DNA of 25,003 bases from Rhodospirillaceae bacterium (GCA_029881835.1 JAOULV010000001.1:1-25003), one strand, 5' to 3'; numbered from the stretch's first letter, positions 57 through 21,559 are shown. The notes: generated from the sequence alone by a model not told the origin. Made by a program: numbers and translations.

Positions 57-911
57 CTAGTTAGGACGCTTGTTCTTGTTAATTTCCGTTTCAAATTTTT
101 CCACATAGGGGCCATGGGTGTATTCATCCAGGCATATGCGGTTCCAGATGCGGCGTTTTAACACATAGAACATGGCGGTAAGGATCATCAGATACAACAT
201 TACCTTTACCCCCAAACGCTTTCTTTCTTCCAGTTCGGGGTTTGATGCCCAAGCCAAGAAACCGGCAATGTCTTTGGCGTGCTGGTCAAGCGTTGCTTCG
301 GTGCCATCTTCATATTCCACCGCTTCATCAAACAATGGCTGGGCCATAAATATTTGGTGTCCGGGGAAATATTTGTTGTAGTAGGTGCCTTCGGACAATT
401 CAAAGCCTTCGGGGGCTTCTTCCATATATCCGGTCATCAAGCCATATATATAATTGGCGCCACCAGCTCGGGCTTTGGTGATAACCGAAAGGTCAGGCGG
501 GAATGCGCCGCCGTTGGCAGAGCGTGCGGCCTTTTCGTTGGCAAACGGTTTTACAATTCGGTCTGACAAGCGTGCCGGACGCAAAAACATTTCACCTTCA
601 TCGTTGGGGCCGTCTTCTACTTCGTATTCGGAAGCTATGGATTTAGCCTCGTCCTCGCTAAAGCCGATATCCAATAAATTGCGGTAATAGACCATTTCAA
701 TGGAATGGCATCCGGCACAAACCCCAAAATAAATGCTGGCACCGCGTTTTAATTGGGCATGGTCGAAGCTGCCAAAAATTCCCTCATAGCCCCATTTGTA
801 GTCGGGCAGCGGTTCTGCCTCGCTCTCTGCGGCCATGGTTTTGCCAGGTGCCATAAAAAAAGCAAAGGATGCCACCAACACAGCGCTAATTATTATATTA
901 CGGTTGCGCAT
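57..911 (-). CDS. petC: cytochrome c1 (bc1 complex)
   Basis: N-terminal signal peptide, CAGCH heme motif, ANGGAFPPDLSVITKAR motif and C-terminal TM anchor. Start moved to ATG 911 (MRNRN), just after the petB stop. Confidence 0.97.
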   Translation of the reverse strand: MRNRNIIISAVLVASFAFFMAPGKTMAAESEAEPLPDYKWGYEGIFGSFDHAQLKRGASIYFGVCAGCHSIEMVYYRNLLDIGFSEDEAKSIASEYEVEDGPNDEGEMFLRPARLSDRIVKPFANEKAARSANGGAFPPDLSVITKARAGGANYIYGLMTGYMEEAPEGFELSEGTYYNKYFPGHQIFMAQPLFDEAVEYEDGTEATLDQHAKDIAGFLAWASNPELEERKRLGVKVMLYLMILTAMFYVLKRRIWNRICLDEYTHGPYVEKFETEINKNKRPN

Positions 912-915
912 TGGC

Positions 916-2142
916 TTAATCCTCCTTGGTGCGGCATTTTTTAGCCACTTCTTCGAATATGCTAACAGGCAATTGTTTTGGTTTTTCAAATCTGCCAACC
1001 AGCGGCAAGACAAGGAAAAATAGGAAATAATAAGCGGTCGAAAGGCGACCCATTATCAGGTAAGCGCCTTCAGCCGGTTTTTGTCCAAGCCAGCCAAGGA
1101 ACAGTGCGTTGGCAACAAAAATCCAGAACAATTGTTTGTAAATCGGGCGATAGGTCGCCGAACGAACTTTTGAGGTATCCAGCCACGGCAGGACATACAA
1201 AACCAATATCCCTGCGGCCATGGCAAGTACGCCGCCCAATTTATCCGGGATCGCCCTTAGAATCGCGTAAAACGGCAAGAAGTACCATTCCGGCACAATG
1301 TGCGGCGGGGTAACCATTGGGTTGGCCGGGATGTAGTTATCCGGGTGGCCAAGGAAGTCCGGGGCAAAGAAAACAAAGAACGAAAAGAACATGAAGAAAA
1401 TGCCAAGTCCGAACAAATCCTTGATGGTGTAAAACGGATGAAACGGCATCATGTCGGCCGGGCTTTTGATTTCAATTCCCAGCGGGTTGTTGGATTTATG
1501 AATGTGTAGCGCCCACATATGAACCACAACCAGACCGAGGATAACCGCCGGTAACAAATAATGCCAAACAAAGAACCGGTTGATGGTCGGCGCATCAACC
1601 GAAAAACCGCCCCAAATCCACACAACGATATATTCGCCGATAACCGGAAGAGCGGAAAACAGGTTGGTAATAACGGTAGCGCCCCAGAAGCTCATTTGTC
1701 CCCAAGGAAGCACATAACCCATAAACGCGGTCGCCATCATTACAACATAAATGGTAACGCCAATCATCCACAGCAGTTCCCGCGGGGCTTTGTATGAACC
1801 AAAATATAGCCCACGGAACATATGAATATAGACCACGATAAAGAACATGGAAGCACCGTTCATATGCAGGTTGCGAAGCAACCAGCCATAATTCACGTCA
1901 CGGACAATGCGCTCAACGCTTTGGAAAGCAACATCGGTATGGGGTTGATAGTTCATGGCAAGGAAAATGCCGGTAACAATCATAATAACCAGAACGATCC
2001 CGGCAATGGAGCCATAGTTCCACCAGTAATTCAGGTTTTTTGGCGTCGGATAAGAAACAAGGTTTTCATCTGAATAGCTGAAAATAGGAAGACGTTCGTC
2101 AATCCACATCAGTAAACGATTGTTGGTTTGCATACGTTTCAT
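916..2142 (-). CDS. petB: cytochrome b (bc1 complex)
   Basis: 408 aa with the PEWY Qo motif, [14 protein letters not shown], and four heme-ligand His in [17 protein letters not shown] and [17 protein letters not shown]. Confidence 0.99.
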
Positions 2143-2150
2143 TGTTTATC

Positions 2151-2729
2151 TCAACCTATCACAATGGATGTTTCATCGGTGAATGTGTATTCCGGGATCG
2201 CCAGATTAAATGGCGCCGGGCCTTTGCGAACCCGTCCGGATGAATCGTAGTGCGATCCGTGGCAGGGGCAGAACCAACCGCCAAAGTCGCCTTTTTTGTC
2301 ACCAAGTTTTTGCCCTGATGGAATGCAACCAAGATGGGTGCAAACGCCAACAGCGACAAGCCATTCAGGTTTTTGTACCCGTTCGCTGTCTGTCTGTTTG
2401 TCGCGTAGCTCATCAAGGCTAACTTCATTAGCCGCAGCAATTTCTTCTTCGGTACGATGACGAATAAACACAGGTTTGCCGCGCCACATAACGGTTACTG
2501 CTTGGCCGACCTCAATCGCTGAAAGATCAACATCGGTTGACGCCAAGGCCAAAACGTCTTTGGCGGGGTTGATTGAATGAATAAAAGGCCACATCGCCAT
2601 ACCCACACCGGCAACACCTAATGCGGTGGTTGACATAAGCAAAAAGTCACGCCTTGGCGCGCTTTCTATTTCATCGGCAATTTGTTCGGCTGTTGCGCCT
2701 GCGGGGGCGGTATTGGAATTGTCAGACAT
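2151..2729 (-). CDS. petA: Rieske iron-sulfur subunit of bc1
   Basis: RRDFL Tat motif plus TM helix, and CTHLGCIP and CPCHGSHYD boxes. Start ATG 2729 is preceded by AGAAAGG. Confidence 0.98.
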
Positions 2730-2795
2730 TTTGCTGCCTTTCTGCATTAATTACTTGGCCGCTGGTTTATGGGCTATAACTTTGATGGTATTGGC

Positions 2796-3024: not shown

Positions 3025-3477
3025 ATGAAAATAGCCTTATTCCAACCGGATATCCCCCAAAACGCAGGAACCATCATCCGCACTGCGGCCTGCCTTGGTG
3101 TGGGGGTGGATTTGATAGAGCCTCTGGGGTTCGTGCTATCGGATAAACACCTTAAACGTGCGGGCATGGATTACCTGAATATGGCCCATGTCGAACGCCA
3201 CAATTCGTGGCAGACGTTCATGGCCAGCCGGGAAACGGCCCCCGGCAGGTTGGTTTTGCTTACCACCGGGGCAAATACCCCTTACACGGATTTTGAATTT
3301 TCCATTGATGACACAATTTTGCTGGGGTCGGAAAGTTCCGGGGTGCCGGACTTTGTCCATCAAAGCGTGGACGCAAGGCTGATTATACCAATGTCGGGCA
3401 ACGCAAGGTCACTAAACGTTGCTATCGCGGGCGCAATGGTGCTGGGCGAAGCGTTGCGCCAAAGCGCAAATAATTAA
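3025..3477 (+). CDS. trmL: tRNA (cytidine(34)-2'-O)-methyltransferase, SPOUT family
   Basis: 150 aa with LFQPDIPQNAGTIIR, LLGSESSGVP and IPMSGNARSLNVA motifs; divergent from petA. Confidence 0.93.
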   Translation: MKIALFQPDIPQNAGTIIRTAACLGVGVDLIEPLGFVLSDKHLKRAGMDYLNMAHVERHNSWQTFMASRETAPGRLVLLTTGANTPYTDFEFSIDDTILLGSESSGVPDFVHQSVDARLIIPMSGNARSLNVAIAGAMVLGEALRQSANN

Positions 3478-3481
3478 ATTA

Positions 3482-4516
3482 TCAATCGTGGCGAATAAGC
3501 CACCAGTGCATCAAAGTCCAAATTAGCGCCAACGCTGAAATCGCAATTATGCCCGCGGTTACTGCAATGTCGAAAGTATTGGAAAGCGGGATATGATAAT
3601 ATTGTGATGGCGAAGACCCCGACACCCAGACATAACGTTCAATCCATGTTCCTAAAATAACGCAAAAACCAACCATCATTATAACGCTTGGGCTGTGGCG
3701 CATTCTTTTAAACAAGAACAAGCTAAAGGGTATGAAAAATTTCAAAACAAGGAAGGTCATGCCCAGCAACATATAGCCCTCGTCAATCATGCGCCAGTAA
3801 CGCTCCATATCGGTTGGCAGGCGCCCGTACCACATGATTAGGTACTGGGTGAAATAAAAATAAACCCACATGATGCTCATGGCTAAAATGAACTGCGCCA
3901 AGTAATTGTAAATTTTAGGATCAAATACACGGGTCAAGCGGCCGGAACGGTCCAAAATAAACAACATTAAGACAAAAAATCCCAAAAAACCATGAAAGGC
4001 ACTTTGCAGTTGGTACGCACCATATGATGCGCTGTGCCAACCCGGCTCTAGCGTCATTTCAAAATCCCACGCAATCATGGTGCCATAAATTATGTAAGCA
4101 AACGGCATTATCACCGCTAGCTTGCCAAACATTTTAGGGCGATGTTTTTCTCTATCTGCTTCGGAAACGTACTGGCACCTTATGGCCGCGACCGAAAGAC
4201 CGGCAACAATCAAAAAACCGATAATCTGACGGGCCACAAGAAATGAATAATTGTGCCATCCCGGTAAGTGCGCTTCTTCGGCGTGCGCATTTTTAAGCCA
4301 AGGGAAAGTCATTTCCCCGTTTAGCAATAAAATTAAAAGCAAAATAAACGCTATGGGAAACAGCGATGTAACGGCACCGGAAAGAAAACGTATTTGCACG
4401 CGCCATTTGCCCCCGGCAAGATGCAAAATAACCGGAAACAAGGCTCCGGAAAGCGCCAAGTAAAGAACGATAAGAAAATTAGTTGTCAGTACGGACCAGC
4501 TGCCAAAATCTTCCAT
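3482..4516 (-). CDS. actF: alternative complex III subunit ActF (NrfD-like polytopic membrane protein)
   Basis: 344 aa with many TM helices and the segments WDFEMTLEPGWHSASYG and YLIMWYGRLP. Last gene of the act cluster; start ATG 4516. Confidence 0.85.
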   Translation of the reverse strand: MEDFGSWSVLTTNFLIVLYLALSGALFPVILHLAGGKWRVQIRFLSGAVTSLFPIAFILLLILLLNGEMTFPWLKNAHAEEAHLPGWHNYSFLVARQIIGFLIVAGLSVAAIRCQYVSEADREKHRPKMFGKLAVIMPFAYIIYGTMIAWDFEMTLEPGWHSASYGAYQLQSAFHGFLGFFVLMLFILDRSGRLTRVFDPKIYNYLAQFILAMSIMWVYFYFTQYLIMWYGRLPTDMERYWRMIDEGYMLLGMTFLVLKFFIPFSLFLFKRMRHSPSVIMMVGFCVILGTWIERYVWVSGSSPSQYYHIPLSNTFDIAVTAGIIAISALALIWTLMHWWLIRHD

Positions 4517-4520
4517 TTTC

Positions 4521-5102
4521 TCATTCCCCCTTTGGCGCAGGCATGGCTTGGGCCATGGCGGCATCTTTTGCCAGTTGGTGTTTTACATAATTTACCACAT
4601 GCCAGCGCTCTTCCACCGACAGGTCGTTTGATCCGCGCAGTTCCCCGTTCATGTCACCGGCCTGACCATAGGGCGGCATAATCGCGCTACCAAAAGTTAT
4701 GGTTCCAAAAATCCATCCATCGGTAAAATCTTCCATGAAATCTGGATCGGTTAAATCCGGCGCGCCAATTTTTTCCGCAACCGGGCTTTCGCCGCGCCCC
4801 GTAAGCCCGTGGCAACCACCGCAATAAATTCTAAAAAGCACACGCCCTTGGGTAAAGGATTGTTGCGTTGGCGCTATGGGGTTGGCAATTCCATCGGTCG
4901 CTTCGCGGTCCGTATATTCGGTTGGAATACCGGTTACGGGAACCGAGCGCGATGGGTAAGGCGTGGTTTTTTCCTGCGGCTTTATTGATACCTGATTGAC
5001 CATATCTTTTGACCACGGCCACGCGTGGGCGTTATGCGGCAATAGCAAAACTGCGCCAAAGCCGACAAACGAATAAATCAAATATTTAAAAGGAGATTTC
5101 AT
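4521..5102 (-). CDS. actE: alternative complex III monoheme cytochrome c ActE
   Basis: Signal peptide ending AHA, single CGGCH, distal Met in IMPPY, and position between actD and actF. ATGA overlap with actD. Confidence 0.88.
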   Translation of the reverse strand: MKSPFKYLIYSFVGFGAVLLLPHNAHAWPWSKDMVNQVSIKPQEKTTPYPSRSVPVTGIPTEYTDREATDGIANPIAPTQQSFTQGRVLFRIYCGGCHGLTGRGESPVAEKIGAPDLTDPDFMEDFTDGWIFGTITFGSAIMPPYGQAGDMNGELRGSNDLSVEERWHVVNYVKHQLAKDAAMAQAMPAPKGE

Positions 5103-5644
5103 TGTGCGTTCTCCTCAAAAATATCAATTACCCGGTGCTTAGCAAAAAGATCGCGAACCTGTTGGCGTTGGGTGTCATCAACCCGTTCAACCACAATGCC
5201 AATTTGATCAAGACTAACCGCATGGTCATAAAATGGACCGCGTTTGCGCATCAATCTGGCACCGATAATAAAACCGATAAGGGTCGCCAAAACACCAAAC
5301 AAAATTAGCATTTCATATGCCAACACCAGGTTTGATGGAATGGTTATCACCGGCTTGCCGCCTTGGGGTTGCACGGTAAAGTTGGCTTGCGCACCGGCAA
5401 GAAAGAAGAACCCGAATATAAGACCGAACAATCCGCCGACGAAGGCAAATTTTGGAATGTTGGTTGGGCGTTCGCCCAGCACGTCTTCAATTTCGGGATG
5501 TTCAATTGGTGATTTTATACGAACATCATCAACCGTAATTCCCGGAACTTCGTAACGGCGGATACCGGCTATTACTTCAAATGCTTGTTCAAAATCTGCG
5601 AACAGTCCGAATATGCGGTGGGTTGGTGCTGTATGATTTGCCAT
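5099..5644 (-). CDS. actD: alternative complex III subunit ActD (DUF3341-like)
   Basis: 181 aa with two TM helices and the segments SPIEHPEIEDVLG and LAYEMLILFGVLAT. Start ATG 5644, directly after the actC stop. Confidence 0.88.
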   Translation of the reverse strand: MANHTAPTHRIFGLFADFEQAFEVIAGIRRYEVPGITVDDVRIKSPIEHPEIEDVLGERPTNIPKFAFVGGLFGLIFGFFFLAGAQANFTVQPQGGKPVITIPSNLVLAYEMLILFGVLATLIGFIIGARLMRKRGPFYDHAVSLDQIGIVVERVDDTQRQQVRDLFAKHRVIDIFEENAQ

Positions 5645-5645
5645 T

Positions 5646-7094
5646 TCAAGACCCCCCATTTTTTGTCGAGCCGGCTTCAACGGCCGTGGGTGCACCTTTG
5701 TGCAGAACCATCATTTCATCAACGTCTTCATAAATTGTGCGTTTGCGATGAAAGACCATTTCCTTGACTTCATACATGGAAACACAAGGAAATACTTTTA
5801 CGAAAATAAGGAACAGCATTCCAAACCAGCCAAAGCTACCGCCGACCATTGCCCATTCAACCCAGCCGGGCCACATTATGTTCCAGCCCCACGGATGGTA
5901 TGACATGGACAGGGTAGGGGTTACGATCATCCAGCGTTCCAGCCACATACCAACGTTTAGTAATACCGATACAACAAACAATAACTTCATGTTGCGCCTG
6001 ACCCATTTAGACAAAAGCGCAAATGGTAAAAACATGCCAAACGCAATCATGCCCCAGAAGAACGGTGCATAGGGGCCATAGGCTTTTGCTAACAGAACTT
6101 CTTTGGATGGGATGTCATGGCCGTACCAAACGGAAGCAAACTCAACCAAGTTTAGATAAGACCAAACCATGGCGATAACAAATGTCAGCTTGCAGACCTT
6201 ATCCAAAATGGGGAACGTCATGTATTCTTCAAATTTGAAAAAATACCTGAGCAAAATAAACAGCGTAATAATGGCGGCACAGCCGGAATAAAGCGCACCG
6301 GCAACAAAATATGGCGGGAAGGTCGTAACGTGCCAGCCTGGCATAATAGCCATGGCAAAATCCATCGAAACAATTGAATGAACCGAAACCGCCAGCGGAA
6401 TAAGGAAACACGCAATCATAAGGTAGGTAATGCGGAAATTGCGCCATTGCCTGTCATCACCGTGCCAGCCGAGCGATAGCCAGGTATAAAGTTTTTTGCG
6501 CCAGCCGGTTGTGTTGTCGCGGCAAATCGCCAAATCGGGTATCATGCCGATATACAGAAACAAAACCGATGACGTTAGGTAAGTGGTGATGGCAAACGCA
6601 TCCCAAATTAGGGGTGAGCGGAAATTGGGCCAAATACCGCGATCGGTCATATAAGGCATAACCCAATAAAAGTTCCATACCCTTCCTAAATGAATGACCG
6701 GGAATATGCCCGCGGTCATAAGTGAAAACGTGGTCATGGCTTCGGCAAAGCGGTATATGGGCTTGCGCCAATCGGCATGAACCAAGTGCAAAATAGCCGA
6801 AAGAAGGGTGCCGGAATGGCTCATCCCGATCCAGAAAACGAAGGTGGAAATATATAAATCCCACATATGCGAGGTGTTAAGCAGGGCCGGGCCCATGCCG
6901 TAAATATATTGATAAACCTCGGCATAAATCATCACGCTAAACAGGGCCACAGAAATTGCCATCGCAATCCAATAGCCGCGGCGCGGATTTTCCATTGAAC
7001 GCAAAACGTCCCGGTTGATTTTGGCCCAAGCGATATTTTCATCAATATCTTTTGTTTGGGTTTCGCTTAAATGTTTAAGTGCGGCTTCGCTCAT
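5646..7094 (-). CDS. actC: alternative complex III quinol-binding subunit ActC (NrfD/PsrC family)
   Basis: 482 aa with FVFWIGMSHSGTLLSAIL, IHLGR, NFRSPLIWD, SVHSIVSMDFA and PPYFVAGALYSG motifs. Confidence 0.95.
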   Translation of the reverse strand: MSEAALKHLSETQTKDIDENIAWAKINRDVLRSMENPRRGYWIAMAISVALFSVMIYAEVYQYIYGMGPALLNTSHMWDLYISTFVFWIGMSHSGTLLSAILHLVHADWRKPIYRFAEAMTTFSLMTAGIFPVIHLGRVWNFYWVMPYMTDRGIWPNFRSPLIWDAFAITTYLTSSVLFLYIGMIPDLAICRDNTTGWRKKLYTWLSLGWHGDDRQWRNFRITYLMIACFLIPLAVSVHSIVSMDFAMAIMPGWHVTTFPPYFVAGALYSGCAAIITLFILLRYFFKFEEYMTFPILDKVCKLTFVIAMVWSYLNLVEFASVWYGHDIPSKEVLLAKAYGPYAPFFWGMIAFGMFLPFALLSKWVRRNMKLLFVVSVLLNVGMWLERWMIVTPTLSMSYHPWGWNIMWPGWVEWAMVGGSFGWFGMLFLIFVKVFPCVSMYEVKEMVFHRKRTIYEDVDEMMVLHKGAPTAVEAGSTKNGGS

Positions 7095-7097
7095 GGT

Positions 7098-7967
7098 TTA
7101 TTCCTCCCGCACACGTTCAAGGTAAAGGACCGAAGGGTCGGTATTTAGTTCTTCAAATATGCGATATCCCCGCAAAGTCGGGTTTTCCCTGTCTTGTTTA
7201 TACTTGCCCAGCTTTATTTGCTGGCGCACCCATGCTTGGGTAACCTTGCTTTCGGGGTTTAGCAGATCGCCAAACATAATTGCCTGGGTCGGGCAGGTTT
7301 GCTGGCAAGCGGTTTTTACTTCACCTTCGGTGACCTGACGATTTTCCATTTTTGCCTTGTCTTTGGCGGCATTAATGCGCTGGATGCAGAATGTGCATTT
7401 TTCCATGACGCCTTTTTCACGCACGCTAATATCCGGGTTTAGCTGTTGCTTCATCGGTTCGGGCCATGCGCCGTTTTCATCGGTATAAGAATAAAAATTA
7501 AACACCCGCAAACGATAGGGGCAGTTGTTGGCGCAATAACGCGAACCGATACAACGGTTATAAATCTGCGCGTTAAGGCCATCGGGCGTATGATAAGTTG
7601 CCGCCACCGGGCAAACCGGCTCGCAAGTTGCCGCATTACATTGTTGGCACATCATCGGCAAAAATGATGCACCGCGTTCTTGCATGGCGTTTTCATCATC
7701 TATTGCGCCGGGGTCAATATCGGGTTCATCAAAATATCTTTCAACCCGCAGCCATTGCATTGATTGGCGGGCAACGTATTTTTCTTCACCCACGGTAGCT
7801 ATGTTGTTTTCTGCATAGCACGCCACCGAACAGGCATTGCATCCGGTGCATTTATCAAGATCGATAACCATGCCCCACATATGTTCATATTCGTGATGGC
7901 CACCTTCTTCGATGCCTTTGGTGTAATCGGTCCAGCCTTTTAATATATTTCCGAATAGAGATGACAT
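7098..7967 (-). CDS. actB2: alternative complex III Fe-S subunit ActB2
   Basis: WGMVIDLDKCTGCNACSVAC, CQQCNAATCEPVCP, CIGSRYCANNCP (3Fe-4S type) and KCTFCIQR...CQQTCP. Own GAAGGAGG RBS and no signal peptide. Confidence 0.92.
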   Translation of the reverse strand: MSSLFGNILKGWTDYTKGIEEGGHHEYEHMWGMVIDLDKCTGCNACSVACYAENNIATVGEEKYVARQSMQWLRVERYFDEPDIDPGAIDDENAMQERGASFLPMMCQQCNAATCEPVCPVAATYHTPDGLNAQIYNRCIGSRYCANNCPYRLRVFNFYSYTDENGAWPEPMKQQLNPDISVREKGVMEKCTFCIQRINAAKDKAKMENRQVTEGEVKTACQQTCPTQAIMFGDLLNPESKVTQAWVRQQIKLGKYKQDRENPTLRGYRIFEELNTDPSVLYLERVREE

Positions 7968-7970
7968 GTA

Positions 7971-10151
7971 TTAGGCCCCTCCTTCAGTTCTGCGCTGTTT
8001 ATCGGCGCTTATGGTTGCAACAAGTTTGCGCCCGTGTTGACGATCAATTTCCATCAGCTTGGCCATTTGTTTGTTTTTGCCCGCACTTTTCACACTAACC
8101 TTGGTGGCAGTGGTGGCAATTTCACCGGTCTTGCTATCGCTTGCGCCATTAAGAATAGAAAGCGGGTTTACCCCGTTATCTTTGGCGTAACGCCCAAGCG
8201 CACTATGGCCGCGCCCAATAGGAACGGCGATGGCACCGGGATGAATGCCTTTATAAATAAAGGCGCGGGTGGTTACTTCACCGCTGGCAGATTTTATATT
8301 TATGTAATCACCATCTTTAATACCAAGTGACTTGGCAGTTTTGGGGTGAAGTTCTGCCCATGAATCCCACACTACTTTGGAAATTTGGTCAGGTGATTCT
8401 TGTAACCACGGAAGGTTGGCGCCCCGCCCATCCCACATACCCATTCTGGCGCTGGCAATTAAGGTTAGGTTGCCATCATCAGAATCATTCATCGTTGGTG
8501 TTATTTTGCCGTCACTATAAGAAAGTTTCCGCCCAAGTGATGGTATTTGGGTTTGCCCCGCCATCAAGAACCCGTTCCATTCTTTTTCGCTGTCGGTTTT
8601 TTTCAGCGCGCTTATGGCGCTGCGCAGGTAGCCGTAATAATCATCATAATCATCCAGTCCCGGCGCGCCCGCGTCTTTGGCCAGCGCCAAAACAACATCA
8701 CCGAAGCCGCGGGTATTGGGGAAAACCGGCTCCATTAACGGCTGTTGCAGGGCAAGATTTCTTGTTCCCTTGGCGTATGAAGGAATGTGGCTTCCCCAAT
8801 CTTCCAACGACGATGCCAACGGCAATACCACGTCTGCCGCTTCGGCCGTTTCGTCAAGCATGGAAGAAAGAACAACTTTAAATCCGACCTTGTTCCAGCC
8901 TTCAAGCATTTTTAGCGATTTGGGCGCAAGGAAAAGCGGGTTTGCGCCGGATACAAACAAAACATCAATTTTGCCCTCGTTGGCATCAATTGCCAAATCT
9001 TTTAGGTTGGCGCTGTTACCTTCAACCAAGTCTAGTTGCGGATAGGCAAGTTCACGCCCGGCGGTAATGGTAGTTCCGATGTTGCCTAGCATCTGGTTTA
9101 ACATCAATGCCGCTGCCGCTGCCGAATAACCGTTTGCATTGCCTGTGGCACTTCCGCCAGCCAAAACAAGGCTAGGGCTGTTTGCCGCCAGTGATGCGGC
9201 AATTTTTTCAATTCTGCCAACCGGCACAGCGCAAATGCCCGCCACTGTTTCGGGGTCGTGTTTATTGATAAGCGTTTTTGTTGCGTTTGAAATACCATTG
9301 CCCGCAACGCCGTGGTTATTCATAAGTGCATTTGCCACGCCTAGGGCCAGCGCGGTTTCACTTCCGGGTTTTATTCCAACCCAGTGATCTGCGTTGCCAC
9401 CGGTTAACGACATGGCGGGCTCGGCCTGAATAAGCGTGCCGCGCGGTGGGGTGCGAAATTCAGCGTAGCTTGCGGCAAAATGAACGGGCGAAATAAACGT
9501 GCCCAGGAAATCAGCGCCTAACGAGAAAATAACCTTGGCTTTTTCAAGGTGTATCTCGGGGTTGGGGTCATTGATAATATCTTTGCACGCCGTTTTCCAG
9601 ACATTGGCATTAATTTGTTCAACGGCGTAATGCCTAGACCCGCCAATTGCCCCAAGATGGGTTTGGGCCATTACTCTTTGATGGCCGCTAATGGTGCCGG
9701 TTACCCATGCGGCTTTGCCTGATTTGCTTTTTTCATTTATTAGCGCAATCGCTTCATCCCAGCTTGCTTCAACCAATGCACCGTTTTTGCGCACCATTGG
9801 GTTGGCTATGCGATCAGGGTTAAAATGGTGCTGCAGGGCGGCTTGGCCCATTTGGCAAAGGCGTCCCATGTTGACGCCGGAATCAGGGTTGCCTTCCAGT
9901 TTTAAAACCCGCCCTTCGCGCACCCGGCCATGTATCCCGCAACCAGCAGAACACCCCACGCAGGTTGACGCATACCATACACCAACACCGGGAATAACGT
10001 ATTCATTCGGCGCCAGATAGGAAATTACATTTTCTTCACCTTGTTCAAGCGTAACGTATGATGGCAGGTCGCACCCGGCCAAGGCCACACCCGCACCACC
10101 AAGGCCAAGACCTTTGAGGAATTGTCTGCGATCAAGTTTGCTCTGGTTCAT
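7971..10151 (-). CDS. actB1: alternative complex III ActB1, molybdopterin-oxidoreductase-like subunit, Tat lipoprotein
   Basis: 726 aa with DRRQFLK Tat motif, LAGC lipobox (C27), CX2CX3CX27C motif (C64/67/71/99), and a C-terminal dinucleotide-binding-like domain (AELHPKTAKSLGIKDGD). Confidence 0.9.
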   Translation of the reverse strand: MNQSKLDRRQFLKGLGLGGAGVALAGCDLPSYVTLEQGEENVISYLAPNEYVIPGVGVWYASTCVGCSAGCGIHGRVREGRVLKLEGNPDSGVNMGRLCQMGQAALQHHFNPDRIANPMVRKNGALVEASWDEAIALINEKSKSGKAAWVTGTISGHQRVMAQTHLGAIGGSRHYAVEQINANVWKTACKDIINDPNPEIHLEKAKVIFSLGADFLGTFISPVHFAASYAEFRTPPRGTLIQAEPAMSLTGGNADHWVGIKPGSETALALGVANALMNNHGVAGNGISNATKTLINKHDPETVAGICAVPVGRIEKIAASLAANSPSLVLAGGSATGNANGYSAAAAALMLNQMLGNIGTTITAGRELAYPQLDLVEGNSANLKDLAIDANEGKIDVLFVSGANPLFLAPKSLKMLEGWNKVGFKVVLSSMLDETAEAADVVLPLASSLEDWGSHIPSYAKGTRNLALQQPLMEPVFPNTRGFGDVVLALAKDAGAPGLDDYDDYYGYLRSAISALKKTDSEKEWNGFLMAGQTQIPSLGRKLSYSDGKITPTMNDSDDGNLTLIASARMGMWDGRGANLPWLQESPDQISKVVWDSWAELHPKTAKSLGIKDGDYINIKSASGEVTTRAFIYKGIHPGAIAVPIGRGHSALGRYAKDNGVNPLSILNGASDSKTGEIATTATKVSVKSAGKNKQMAKLMEIDRQHGRKLVATISADKQRRTEGGA

Positions 10152-10172: not shown

Positions 10173-10817
10173 CTACTTGTGACACTTGGTGCAGTCTGAC
10201 GGGCCTTCGTTGGCCTCGTGACAGCGAATACAAAAGCCCATGGTTAGCGGGCGCGACTTTTTAGCCACGGTCATTTCGGCAATATCGCCATGACACATGG
10301 AACAAACACGCTTGGCGTCCGAAACGTCTAGTTCTTGGTTATCAAACAAAAAACGCTTCAGGTGACGTTGGTGGGTAAAGTGAACAAAATCCGGCAGGTC
10401 ATGAACCTTGTTCCATTGTGGGCTTTCGCCTTTTTCCCACATGGCGGTTAGCTTTTGAATTTCCGGTTTTTCGGTTGCGATTACCGTGTGGCAGCCCATG
10501 CATTTGGAAAGGGGCGGTATGCCAGAAACCTTGGAACGCCTTGCGTAGGTATGACAGAACATGCAGTTAATCTCGTTATCGCCGGCATGGATTTTATGGG
10601 AAAAATCTATTGGCTGGGGGACATCGATGCCGGTGAAGGCTTCATCCGGGTACTGGGTTCCCGGAACTATAGGTCCCGGTACTACATCGGTGCTGGTGTA
10701 GTGAAGCTTTTGATCAAGTATCTGCGCCGCAATAACGATTATTGCGCCCACCAGCACAACAACCATGCTTAGACGGATCCATGGAATTGGCCTTTTCCTT
10801 GGGTTGTTCTTGACCAT
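10173..10817 (-). CDS. actA: alternative complex III pentaheme cytochrome c ActA
   Basis: N-terminal TM anchor, QPIDFSHKIH, five CXXCH motifs (CMFCH, CMGCH, CSMCH, CIRCH, CTKCH) and LPDFVHFTH. Confidence 0.93.
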   Translation of the reverse strand: MVKNNPRKRPIPWIRLSMVVVLVGAIIVIAAQILDQKLHYTSTDVVPGPIVPGTQYPDEAFTGIDVPQPIDFSHKIHAGDNEINCMFCHTYARRSKVSGIPPLSKCMGCHTVIATEKPEIQKLTAMWEKGESPQWNKVHDLPDFVHFTHQRHLKRFLFDNQELDVSDAKRVCSMCHGDIAEMTVAKKSRPLTMGFCIRCHEANEGPSDCTKCHK

Positions 10818-17130: not shown

Positions 17131-18672
17131 TTATTGCGGTTTCCAGCGCAACACCGGGTTTCTGGCGGCCGCTGTTTCATCAAGGCGACGACGCGGGGTG
17201 TGGCGCGGTGCATCATGGAAAAATTCCGCATCACCGGCTTTGGCTTTTTCGGCCAAGCCCCTAACGGTCTTGATGTACAGGTCTAGCGTTTCTTTTGATT
17301 CACTTTCGGTCGGTTCCATCAACAACGCACCGTGCACCACCAACGGGAAATACATGGTCATGGGATGAAAACCTTCGTCAATCATTGCTTTGGCAAAATC
17401 TAGCGTGCTAACCCCGGTATCTTTCAAGAAGCGGTCATCAAACAGAACTTCGTGCATGCAAAGCCCGTCAAACGAAACGCTTAAAATATCACCAAGGCTG
17501 GCACGCAGGTAATTGGCGTTAAGCACCGCATCGCCCGATGCCTGCATCAGGCCGTCTGCGCCATGGCTCATCATGAACGCAAGGGCGCGGGTGAACATGC
17601 CCATCTGCCCGTGATAGCCTTTCAAGCGACCGAACGGCACGCCGTCTGCTTCATTTACGTCTTCGACTAACTTGAAAGAATTTCCATCATGAATGACATA
17701 CGGAACAGGCGCAAATGGGGCCAATGCTTCCGATAGCACGGTCGGCCCGGCACCGGGGCCACCACCGCCGTGGGGGGTGGAAAATGTTTTATGCAGGTTG
17801 ATGTGCATGCAATCAATTCCCAAATCACCCGGGCGAACCCGGCCGCAAATGGCATTAAGGTTGGCACCGTCACAATAAAAATATCCACCCGCTTCGTGAA
17901 TGGCGTCGGCTATTTCGATTATATCGTTTTCAAACAGGCCGCAGGTATTGGGGTTGGTCAGCATTATGCCTGCCACATCGGGGCCAAGCTTGGCCTTGAA
18001 CGCGGCAATATCAACCCGGCCTTTAGCGGTGGCGGGAATTGAATCAACCGTAAAACCGCACGCCGCTGCCGTGGCCGGGTTGGTGCCGTGTGCGCTTTCG
18101 GGCACCAAAACGCGGGTACGGTTTTCACCGCGCGCTTTAATGGCGGCGGCAATTGCCATCATTCCGCAAAGTTCACCGTGGGCACCGGCGGCCGGGCTCA
18201 TGGCGACGGCCGGCATGTTGGTCAACGTTTTTAACCAATGCGCCAGCGTATCAATAAGTTCCAGCGCGCCTTGCACGGTTGATTGTGGTTGCAATGGGTG
18301 CAAATCACCAAGGCCGCGCATACGGGCTATTTTTTCATTTACCCTAGGGTTGTGCTTCATGGTGCACGAACCAAGCGGATAAAACCCCGAATCAATTCCG
18401 TAGTTTTTTTGGCTAAGCCGGGTGTAATGGCGAACGATTTGTGGTTCAGAAAGACCGGGGAGGCCCACATTTTCTTTTCGCGTCAATCCACCAAGGCGGC
18501 TATCAGAAATTTCAACCGGGTTGATGTCAACCCCGGTGCGGCCTTCTTCGCCCATTTCAAAAATCAACGGCTCATCAAATTCAAGCCCCTTTGACCCGCT
18601 AATGGTAACGGTTTTGGGTTGTTGCGAGCCTGCGACGGGAACGTTTGTGCGTCCTTGTGACATGTCAGACAT
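17131..18672 (-). CDS. gcvPB: glycine dehydrogenase (decarboxylating) subunit 2
   Basis: YPLGSCTMKHNP and the PLP-lysine motif HINLHKTFSTPHGGGGPG; TAATG overlap with gcvPA. Confidence 0.97.
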   Translation of the reverse strand: MSDMSQGRTNVPVAGSQQPKTVTISGSKGLEFDEPLIFEMGEEGRTGVDINPVEISDSRLGGLTRKENVGLPGLSEPQIVRHYTRLSQKNYGIDSGFYPLGSCTMKHNPRVNEKIARMRGLGDLHPLQPQSTVQGALELIDTLAHWLKTLTNMPAVAMSPAAGAHGELCGMMAIAAAIKARGENRTRVLVPESAHGTNPATAAACGFTVDSIPATAKGRVDIAAFKAKLGPDVAGIMLTNPNTCGLFENDIIEIADAIHEAGGYFYCDGANLNAICGRVRPGDLGIDCMHINLHKTFSTPHGGGGPGAGPTVLSEALAPFAPVPYVIHDGNSFKLVEDVNEADGVPFGRLKGYHGQMGMFTRALAFMMSHGADGLMQASGDAVLNANYLRASLGDILSVSFDGLCMHEVLFDDRFLKDTGVSTLDFAKAMIDEGFHPMTMYFPLVVHGALLMEPTESESKETLDLYIKTVRGLAEKAKAGDAEFFHDAPRHTPRRRLDETAAARNPVLRWKPQ

Positions 18673-20021
18673 TACAATATCTCCTTCAATGCCGCGGTTA
18701 ATGCTTCCATGTCTTTGACCGTGTTGGTTTCGGTTGCCGCTACTATCATCATGTTGGTGAAATCTGCGTTACCGGGGAAAAGCCGTGAAAGGGGAATACC
18801 GCCCAAAATTCCTTTGCTTGCTAATTTTTCCACCACTTCGCCCGCCGGCTTGGCAAGCTTGACGGTAAATTCATTGAAGAATGTTTTGTTTAGCACTTCT
18901 ACGCCACTAACTTTGGCTAACATATCGGCCAAGGTGCAGGCATTGGCGTGGTTGGTTCTGGCCAAACGTTTAATGCCTTCGTCACCCAGCAGTGACGCAT
19001 GGATGGAAAACGCCAGCGCGCATAGGCCCGAGTTAGTACAAATATTTGACGTAGCTTTTTCCCGGCGAATGTGTTGTTCGCGGGTTGAAAGGGTTAAAAC
19101 CCAGCCACGCTTGCCTTCAACGTCTTTGGTTTCACCGCAAACCCGGCCGGGCATCTGGCGAACATATTTTGGGTTGGTGGCAAAAAGCCCGACATAAGGT
19201 CCGCCAAAACCAAGCGGGTTGCCAATTGATTGCCCTTCGGCGGCAACAATGTCGGCACCTTGGTTGCCCGGTGCTTCCAACAGGCCAAGCGAGATAATTT
19301 CGGTATTTACCGCAATCAACAAAGCACCTTTTTCGTGCGCCGCTTCGGCAATTTTTGTCAGGTCATAGAGGTTGCCAAAAACGTCAGGGGTTTGCACCAT
19401 TACGCATGATGTTTTGTCATCAATCAGGGAAATGAGCTCGTCCATACTGTCGCCGTTAGCATTGGGTTCGGGCGATACAATTTCAAAGCCAAGATATTTT
19501 GCATGCGTCTCGGTTACCTCGCGGTAATGCGGGTGCAGGCCACCGGCAATGACCGCGCGTTCGCGCCGGGTTACGCGGTTTGCCATCATTACCGCTTCGG
19601 CGGCAGATGTTGCGCCGTCATACATAGATGCGTTGGCGACTTCCATTCCGGTTAATAATGCAACTTGGGTTTGGAATTCGAACAATACCTGCAAGGTTCC
19701 CTGGCTTACTTCCGGCTGATAAGGGGTGTAAGCGGTCAGGAATTCGCCGCGCTGGATCATGTAATCAACGGTTGCCGGTATATGGTGGCGATAAGCGCCG
19801 CCACCAAGAAACGACGGCGAGGTGGAGGGGCTAAGATTTTTGGCCGCCATTTCAGCCATTATCCTTTCCACTTCCATCTCGCCTTGACGTGGGGGGAGGT
19901 CCACTGGCGCTTTTAACAGCGCCTGAGCTGGTACGTCGGCAAACAATCCGTTGATGTCATTAACACCGATTTTGCGAAGCATTTCTTCGCGGTCTTCATC
20001 GGTTAGCGGCAGGTAGCGCAT
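18672..20021 (-). CDS. gcvPA: glycine dehydrogenase (decarboxylating) subunit 1
   Basis: EFLTAYTPYQPEVSQG, NASMYDGAT and REQHIRREKATSNICTN motifs. Confidence 0.97.
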   Translation of the reverse strand: MRYLPLTDEDREEMLRKIGVNDINGLFADVPAQALLKAPVDLPPRQGEMEVERIMAEMAAKNLSPSTSPSFLGGGAYRHHIPATVDYMIQRGEFLTAYTPYQPEVSQGTLQVLFEFQTQVALLTGMEVANASMYDGATSAAEAVMMANRVTRRERAVIAGGLHPHYREVTETHAKYLGFEIVSPEPNANGDSMDELISLIDDKTSCVMVQTPDVFGNLYDLTKIAEAAHEKGALLIAVNTEIISLGLLEAPGNQGADIVAAEGQSIGNPLGFGGPYVGLFATNPKYVRQMPGRVCGETKDVEGKRGWVLTLSTREQHIRREKATSNICTNSGLCALAFSIHASLLGDEGIKRLARTNHANACTLADMLAKVSGVEVLNKTFFNEFTVKLAKPAGEVVEKLASKGILGGIPLSRLFPGNADFTNMMIVAATETNTVKDMEALTAALKEIL

Positions 20022-20042
20022 TTTGATTTTTTCCTATTAAAC

Positions 20043-20420
20043 TTAATCTAGGGTGCCCAAATATTCGTCGTATTCGGCATCGTTCATCATTCCATCCAGT
20101 TCGGACGTATTGGACATTTTAATTTTAAAGAACCAGCCATCGCTTCCGGCTTCGCCTGAAACCTGCGCCGGGTCATCGGCAATGGCTTGGTTGCCTTCAA
20201 CCACTTCGCCGCTAACAGGGGCGTAAACTTCGCTTGCGGCTTTGACCGATTCAACCACGGCGGCTTCTTCGCCAACCGAAACTGATTTACCCGCATCCGG
20301 AACTTCGACAAAAACAAGATCGCCAAGCTGTTCAAGCGCATAAGTGGTGATGCCAACGGTTGCGACATCGCCGTCAACCGAAACCCATTCATGATCTTTG
20401 GTAAATTTAATTGTGCTCAT
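20043..20420 (-). CDS. gcvH: glycine cleavage system H protein
   Basis: FTKDHEW and the lipoyl-lysine motif [17 protein letters not shown]. Confidence 0.97.
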
Positions 20421-20434
20421 TTTAAAAGATTCCC

Positions 20435-21559
20435 TTATTTCTTGATACGATAACGATGCGGGGTGAACGGCATTTTCACCACTCGGGCTGCAATTGCCTT
20501 GCCGCGAACAATAAGTTTTAATTCAGTGCCTTCAGCGCTGAAATCAGTTTTGACATAACCCATCGCCACCGGGCCATCAACGCTGGGGCCAAACCCGCCG
20601 CTGGTAATGGTGCCGATGGTGTTTCCATTGTTGTCTTGGATTTCGGTTCCTTCACGCGCCGGTGCACGACCTTCTGGTTTTATACCAACGCGCAGACGTT
20701 CGGTTCCGTTTTCAATTTGGTCCATTATTATATTTGCGCCGGGGAAGTTTTTTTCTTCGCGTCGGCGTTTGTTGATTGCCCATTTAAGGTCGGCTTCAAC
20801 CGGGGTGGTGGTCGTATCTATGTCGTGGCCATAAAGGCAAAGCCCCGCTTCAAGGCGCAGGCTGTCGCGCGCACCAAGGCCGATTGCCTCGACCTCGGGC
20901 TCACTTAAAAGCTTTTTCGCAAGCTCGGTTGCTTGGTTTGCGGGTACGGAAATTTCAAACCCATCTTCGCCGCTATAACCTGAACGGGTGGCAAAACACG
21001 CGATACCTGCAATTGTTACCTCGGCAAAGGTCATAAATGTCATGTCTGCGGTTTCAGGCGAAAGCCTTGCCACAACCTCGCCCGCTTTGGGTCCTTGTAT
21101 CGCCAATAATGCGCGGTCTTCAAGAATTTCCAGCTCGGCCTTGCCTGCGGTTTTTACCTTGATGTGGGCAAAGTCGGCATCCTTGCAGGCCGCGTTGACA
21201 ACGATGTAAAGACCGCCGTCAATTCTGGTTGCCATCAGGTCATCCATTATACAGCCCTTGTTATTTAGCAAAACCGTATAGCGGGTTTTGCCCACGGGCA
21301 TTATTTGATAATCGCCCGGAACCAAAGATTCAAAGGCATCAACTGCCCCATCACCTTTAAGAAATGCTTGGCCCATGTGCGAAACATCAAACAGACCAGC
21401 ATTAGTGCGGGTATGAAGGTGTTCTTTCAAAACCCCCATTGGGTATTGAACCGGCATGTCATAGCCTGCAAACGGCACCATTTTGGCACCCAGTTCACGG
21501 TGTAATGCGTCCAGCGGGGTTTTATTTAATTGGATGCTGTCTTTTTGGTTTTCTGGCAC
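20435..21559 (-). CDS. gcvT: glycine cleavage aminomethyltransferase
   Basis: [21 protein letters not shown] and [14 protein letters not shown] motifs; GTG start with AAGGAA RBS. Confidence 0.97.

Follow-up and report, generated by a model that had tools for sequence, protein, structure and literature searches.

A retained FS0 motif in the split ActB1 subunit of a Rhodospirillaceae alternative complex III points to a probable fifth iron-sulfur cluster in a probably non-catalytic protein

Does the ActB1 subunit of an alternative complex III (ACIII) from a Rhodospirillaceae bacterium bind an iron-sulfur cluster of its own, and is it still a molybdenum enzyme? The question arises from actB1 in a window of 25,003 nucleotides (GCA_029881835.1 JAOULV010000001.1:1-25003; the window is the whole stretch of DNA analyzed, and positions count from its first letter; Table 1). 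A first-pass annotation of the locus had picked out, between 9855 and 10151, a twin-arginine translocation (Tat) signal, a lipobox, and the four cysteines of an FS0 motif, and had proposed a possible fifth cluster that would extend the wire of the complex into B1. Judging from sequence comparison and a structural model, we consider it likely that ActB1 is a lipid-anchored, non-catalytic subunit with a probable fifth [4Fe-4S] cluster that would lengthen the wire of its partner ActB2.

Translation of the minus-strand open reading frame gave a protein of 726 residues, starting at the codon 10149 to 10151. The twin-arginine pair (R8-R9) lies within DRRQFLK, and the hydrophobic stretch closes with a canonical lipobox (L24-A25-G26-C27). 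Downstream stands C64-x2-C67-x3-C71-x27-C99, the N-terminal CX2CX3CXnC motif of catalytic subunits that carry a molybdenum or tungsten bis(pyranopterin guanine dinucleotide) cofactor (Mo/W-bisPGD). The codon of C99 ends at 9855, and the interval first noticed corresponds exactly to residues 1 to 99, with motif, signal, and lipobox as described. Pfam recognized Molybdop_Fe4S4 (PF04879; E = 1.2e-11; 44.8 bits against a cutoff of 22.7) and TAT_signal (23.3 bits; cutoff 22.7), as well as Molybdopterin and Molydop_binding domains. ActB1 contains seven cysteines in total (27, 64, 67, 71, 99, 189, and 307), five of which make up the lipobox and FS0. The four-cysteine pattern exceeds chance.

This pattern is deeply conserved. 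Among 120 close homologs of ActB1 (48 to 91% identity), C27 and all four FS0 cysteines were present in every sequence and the twin arginines in 115, and Asp28, at lipobox position +2, was invariant across the clade. A HMMER search of 1.84 billion representatives (50% identity clustering) returned 1195 clusters at E <= 1e-30. We scored the motif in the query and the best 150 of these clusters (151 representatives; 30 to 56% identity) and found the four cysteines complete in 133, including 48 of 52 proteins of fused ActB length. One such fused representative sits in an ACIII operon consisting of actA, fused actB, actC, actD, actE, and actF; a second sits in an ACIII operon without actE. Starting from ActC instead of B1 (the best 80 of at least 600 matches), a sampling of species genomes yielded 76 operons with a B1 homolog, mostly from Gemmatimonadota but also from Acidobacteriota, Gammaproteobacteria, Myxococcota, Nitrospinota, Methylomirabilota, and Binatia. 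The four cysteines were intact in all 68 operons whose N terminus was on the contig (56 fused, 12 split). Retention of the cysteines down to ~30% identity argues for purifying selection and, in turn, for a bound cluster. Both samples were ordered by similarity to the query operon, and FS0-less clades (Bacteroidota, Chloroflexota) may also be large; these counts therefore give neither the proportion of FS0 across the family nor its standing as a majority character.

FS0 is missing from some ActB proteins of both architectures, fused (L005) and split (L006). In a FastTree phylogeny of 140 B1 domains, rooted on the Psr-like enzyme of the same genome, FS0-bearing lineages stood at the base and throughout, and FS0-less ones were nested in ~5 places, at least 4 of which are forced by well-supported branches. 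The query fell within a well-supported, six-row split clade, the position of which beside a large, mostly fused ACIII clade is not resolved by this tree. This quick tree shows FS0 loss in ACIII as a repeated, derived event, and such repeated loss shows that the core quinol:cytochrome c activity does not depend on FS0.

Which characterized proteins does ActB1 resemble? Its best sequence match in the PDB was ArrA (6cz7; E = 3e-39), with four solved ActB chains close behind. An AlphaFold2 model built from 65 homologs (mean predicted local distance difference test [pLDDT], 82.4; predicted template modeling score, 0.84) matched ArrA with a Foldseek template modeling score (TM) of 0.75, PsrA with 0.73, NapA and Fdh with ~0.7, and ActB with 0.67 to 0.71. 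The best NCBIfam profile was that of QrcB (NF041783), which covered the full length at 260 bits, under its cutoff of 440; PhsA (160 bits) and ArrA (144 bits) scored lower. QrcB is described in the literature as cofactor-less, and Wells 2023 placed ActB beside ArrAB. In alignments, ActB of Roseiflexus (6lod), Flavobacterium (6btm), and Chloroflexus (8k9e) had no cysteine at the four positions aligned with FS0, and the structure papers on the Rhodothermus and Roseiflexus complexes report no prosthetic group in B1. The first-pass view that characterized ActB proteins carry clusters only in B2 and bind no Mo was thus correct.

The molybdenum site was examined in the alignment with ArrA (HMMER, 6cz7), which is ungapped over this region, so that residues can be mapped directly. 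In ArrA, we take Cys193 to be the Mo ligand and R165, Y166, H189, S190, and K198 to belong to the substrate pocket, roles with which the numbering of the chain is consistent. Cys193 falls on Asn181 of ActB1 (SSVCAEAHK against EQINANVWK), a residue outside the set of Mo/W ligands (Cys, selenocysteine, Ser, or Asp). R165, Y166, H189, and S190 correspond to T153, I154, V177, and E178, respectively, and K198 is retained as K186. Across the 151 representatives, the ligand column contained no cysteine and varied freely among G, S, A, D, N, and E. Two further positions are hallmarks of the cofactor site in Mo enzymes: a Lys or Arg two residues after the fourth FS0 cysteine and the Arg of a DPR motif. 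The former (C-P-R in ArrA) is replaced in C99-Q-M101, the Met being invariant in the close clade, and the DPR shared by ArrA and three aligned formate dehydrogenases reads E244-P245-A246 in ActB1. These replacements point to a non-catalytic ActB1, stopping short of proof. They also agree with the first-pass annotation, which had singled out HYAVEQINAN as the Mo-ligand segment, seen no Cys, selenocysteine, or Ser in it, and been rightly cautious about catalysis.

The spacing CX2CX3CX27C is itself already in print. Kato 2015 (PMC4643136) published it for the split actB1 of iron oxidizers, and the query shares both the gene order described there (actA-B1-B2-C-D-E-F) and the spacing. The protein has carried the annotation "molybdopterin oxidoreductase Fe4S4 region" since Singer 2011, in which the homolog of Mariprofundus was isolated and found to be highly expressed, and Emerson 2013 and a 2026 review take up the iron-oxidizer reading of the complex. 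As far as sequences can tell, FS0 is conserved in many ACIII operons, widely distributed and already described in print, and the query is an ordinary example. A fifth cluster, as first proposed, is a reasonable inference from deep conservation but not something special to this complex. The suggestion of an intermediate between Psr-like enzymes and ACIII survives only if it is taken to mean that an ancestral trait has been kept, since the operon is a full ACIII and the tree shows FS0 loss to be derived. The first-pass annotation had also asked whether the motif might be routine in characterized ACIIIs; it is absent from the aligned solved ActB proteins but common in uncharacterized ACIII operons. 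The point is a family-wide one, visible already in the iron-oxidizer literature, and no discovery particular to this window.

How might such a subunit work? On the reading we favor, ActB1 would fold in the cytoplasm, where one [4Fe-4S] cluster is most likely acquired on C64, C67, C71, and C99. It would pair with the four-cluster ActB2, which lacks a signal peptide, and Tat would export the pair by means of the twin-arginine signal of ActB1. Lipidation would occur at Cys27, and Asp28 at +2 would fit retention at the periplasmic face of the inner membrane. Cluster occupancy, co-export, and lipidation are inferred here from the established biology of Tat and of complex iron-sulfur molybdoenzymes. 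Because the hallmarks of a Mo/W-bis-pterin site are lost, ActB1 would serve as a scaffold and pass on electrons rather than catalyze a reaction. By analogy with PsrAB and ArrAB, FS0 would lie at the B1/B2 interface beside the distal B2 cluster, adding one center to the wire of ActB2, which runs from a [3Fe-4S] cluster to three [4Fe-4S] clusters. There it may stabilize the fold (domain I) or act as a second electron port.

Several observations sit uneasily with this reading. Asn occupies position 181 in 112 of the 120 close homologs, a local conservation that contrasts with the free variation of this position in the wider family. Arsenite oxidase binds Mo-bisPGD without a protein ligand, so a missing ligand does not by itself exclude a pterin. 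Most other FS0-bearing ActB proteins keep Arg at the positions equivalent to 101 and 246, and pterin loss may therefore differ across the family. The genome (1.87 Mb in 410 contigs; 91.5% complete) encodes MoeA, and it contains a second MopB operon (L001 4004-8648, on contig C99) for a 980-residue MopB protein (best NCBIfam match PhsA, 220 bits, far under the cutoff), a 247-residue four-cluster protein, and a 314-residue protein with no NCBIfam match. This operon could encode a SoeABC-, Psr-, or Phs-like enzyme. Although MoaC had no match in this genome at its level of completeness, these data suggest that the organism makes and uses Mo-bisPGD, synthesis of the molybdenum cofactor (Moco) being probable. 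However, the presence of Moco genes cannot discriminate between readings because they are near-universal in the order regardless of ActB1: among 61 relatives, MoaC was found in 56, MoeA in 60, and ActB1 in 14. Finally, we found no metal analysis, electron paramagnetic resonance study, or structure in the literature for any FS0-bearing ACIII.

Could the cluster instead be a working second electron port? In this alternative, which we rate as possible but unlikely, it would make the dead-end FeS2-4 wire functional, with electrons passing to or from a soluble periplasmic partner (a high-potential iron-sulfur protein, a cytochrome c, or an Fe(II)-derived source) via the vestigial substrate funnel in B1, in parallel to the heme wire. 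The deep conservation of the FS0 cysteines would fit, as would the solved structures: the Rhodothermus and Roseiflexus papers give no known role for the three [4Fe-4S] clusters of B2, which end blind at B1, and the latter calls them an electron-transfer dead end. Moreover, expression of the homolog in Mariprofundus PV-1 is strong while Fe(II) is being oxidized, and iron-oxidizer models route electrons via the complex. Against this stand the burial of FS0 in Mo enzymes, where contact with the outside is made solely through the pterin and where the bridging residues are lost here (Met101); an operon without a gene for a partner; and the independent losses of FS0 (~5 changes), which show that the complex can do without it. 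The wider proposal, that in FS0-bearing ACIIIs (a large share of the family, the query among them) the fifth cluster is redox-active and the dead-end FeS2-4 branch is a second electron entry or exit, we regard as unlikely. If true, the solved ACIIIs would stand for a pared-down version of the enzyme, not its general design. Because FS0 is kept under strong selection in many split and fused ACIII operons, cofactor count and possibly wiring may differ from the structural models, and retention of FS0 is a useful pointer when deciding which ACIII to purify next.

It is very unlikely that the four cysteines are a relic with no redox-active cluster in vivo, binding Zn, forming disulfides, or serving only cytoplasmic folding or Tat proofreading. 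Several lineages, the solved complexes included, do manage without the motif, and the FS0 region of the AlphaFold2 model (pLDDT 76 to 81) is less confident than the core. However, reduced pLDDT is expected for a metal site modeled without its metal, all four positions would not stay invariant across lineages to ~30% identity in a relic, and both the spacing, identical to that of FS0 sites that bind clusters, and a Pfam score far over the cutoff argue for a cluster. Least probable of all is that ActB1 still holds a Mo/W-bis-pterin for catalysis, its protein ligand being unconventional or missing (as in arsenite oxidase), and that the complex couples some periplasmic substrate to quinone chemistry: the kept FS0, three MopB Pfam domains above their cutoffs, ArrA and PsrA as top structural matches, Lys186, Asn181 as conserved within the clade, and the Moco genes of the genome and its relatives are outweighed by the replacement, in this clade, of the ligand Cys, the Lys/Arg after the fourth cysteine, and the DPR Arg, by the loss of four of five aligned ArrA substrate residues, by a freely variable ligand column, and by a top sequence profile that belongs to cofactor-less QrcB, the Moco genes themselves being uninformative.

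What kind of operon surrounds this subunit? The locus is a complete ACIII operon, actA-B1-B2-C-D-E-F, with ActB split in two and actB1 second of seven tightly spaced genes in the same orientation (Table 1). It contains the members of an ACIII: a pentaheme ActA upstream, MopB-like B1, four-cluster B2, NrfD-like ActC (37 to 49% identical to ActC of other ACIII operons), ActD, monoheme ActE, and a second NrfD-like protein, ActF. The last had no Pfam match, its sole support being a BLASTP match to the gene in the actF position of a fused-ActB ACIII operon (L003; E = 4e-24; 24% identity over 330 residues). In ActB2, cysteine group III reads C139-x2-S142-x2-C145-x3-C149-P, Ser replacing the second Cys, which is the [3Fe-4S] type of ACIII and Qrc; its best NCBIfam profile was QrcC (227 bits, under the cutoff of 400). 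ActE has a Sec-type signal that ends in AHA before W, without a lipobox; the lipobox of this operon sits on ActB1. ActE of Rhodothermus and Roseiflexus is reported to be a lipoprotein.

Table 1. Features of the ACIII operon and its surroundings, with positions in the 25,003-nucleotide window
Feature	Position	Strand	Description
actB1	7971..10151	-	726-residue MopB-fold subunit; Tat signal, lipobox Cys27, FS0 C64/C67/C71/C99, Asn181
ActB1 residues 1-99	9855..10151	-	Signal peptide, lipobox, and four FS0 cysteines
ActB1 Asn181 codon	9609-9611	-	Aligned with ArrA Cys193
actA	10173..10817	-	Membrane-anchored pentaheme cytochrome c; five CxxCH; Cytochrome c7/c3 Pfam matches
actB2	7098..7967	-	289-residue four-cluster ferredoxin subunit, no signal peptide (Pfam, motif reading)
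actC	5646..7094	-	NrfD/PsrC-like quinol-binding membrane subunit; Pfam NrfD, E = 1.3e-23
actD	5099..5695	-	Pfam ActD PF11821, E = 6e-28
actE	4521..5102	-	Monoheme cytochrome c; one CxxCH; Pfam Cytochrome_CBB3
actF	3482..4564	-	Second, divergent NrfD-like membrane subunit (BLASTP)
SpoU-type methylase gene	3025-3477	+	Sole gene between the ACIII and bc1 operons
Rieske	2151-2747	-	bc1 operon
Cytochrome b	916-2142	-	bc1 operon
Cytochrome c1	57-1013	-	bc1 operon

The ACIII operon is followed directly on its downstream side by an entire cytochrome bc1 operon (57-2747, minus strand), so that two unrelated quinol:cytochrome c oxidoreductases are encoded side by side. At 17131-21559 (minus strand) are housekeeping-like glycine cleavage genes: a split P protein (gcvPA/gcvPB), gcvT, and an open reading frame for 125 residues in the gcvH position. 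Elsewhere in the genome, the second MopB gene (L001 4004-6946) was considered as a fused ActB and rejected, being Psr/Phs/Soe-like with its own Fe-S and membrane partners. The closest named homologs of ActB1 (49 to 55% identity) belong to Magnetovibrio, Varunaivibrio, and Rhodospirillales, and the nearest named protein relatives of the genome come from Rhodospirillaceae, Magnetovibrio, and Varunaivibrio. The distribution of this ActB1 clade is patchy and family-restricted among 60 sampled relatives: 13 of the 20 genomes sampled within the family had it, against none of the 40 from other families of the order. An ortholog from the same genus (G004:C40:388-2442) was reported with an in-frame TAA, possibly a pseudogene or an assembly error.

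How, then, does this complex compare with known systems? Catalytic ArrAB and PsrABC likewise carry FS0 and a Tat signal, keep their four-cluster partner as a separate protein, and have a membrane anchor of the NrfD type; in contrast, the query has replaced the Mo-ligand Cys, most substrate residues, the Arg/Lys after the fourth cysteine, and the DPR Arg, and it has heme subunits and a first B2 cluster of the [3Fe-4S] type. QrcB and QrcC of the menaquinone reductase QrcABCD of sulfate reducers supply the top NCBIfam profiles for B1 and B2, and Qrc likewise has separate molybdopterin-like and Fe-S subunits with a multiheme cytochrome gene upstream. However, both query scores fall below the cutoffs, QrcB is cofactor-less, and the operon is not QrcABCD, since it adds ActD, ActE, and ActF, which Qrc lacks. 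The solved ACIIIs (Rhodothermus marinus 6F0K, Flavobacterium johnsoniae 6BTM, Roseiflexus castenholzii 6LOD, and Chloroflexus aurantiacus 8K9E) have the same subunit set, A to F, a MopB-like B1 fold, a [3Fe-4S]-type first B2 cluster, and a Tat signal on B; they differ in having a single fused B protein whose B1 part is without a cofactor, whereas the query has separate genes for B1 and B2 and an intact FS0 site. The ACIII-like clusters of iron oxidizers (Ferriphaselus, Sideroxydans, Gallionella, and Mariprofundus) have the order actAB1B2CDEF and a split actB, as here, and a B1 published with the same CX2CX3CX27C. The query differs from them in its host, a Rhodospirillaceae-like metagenome-assembled genome, and in standing beside petABC.

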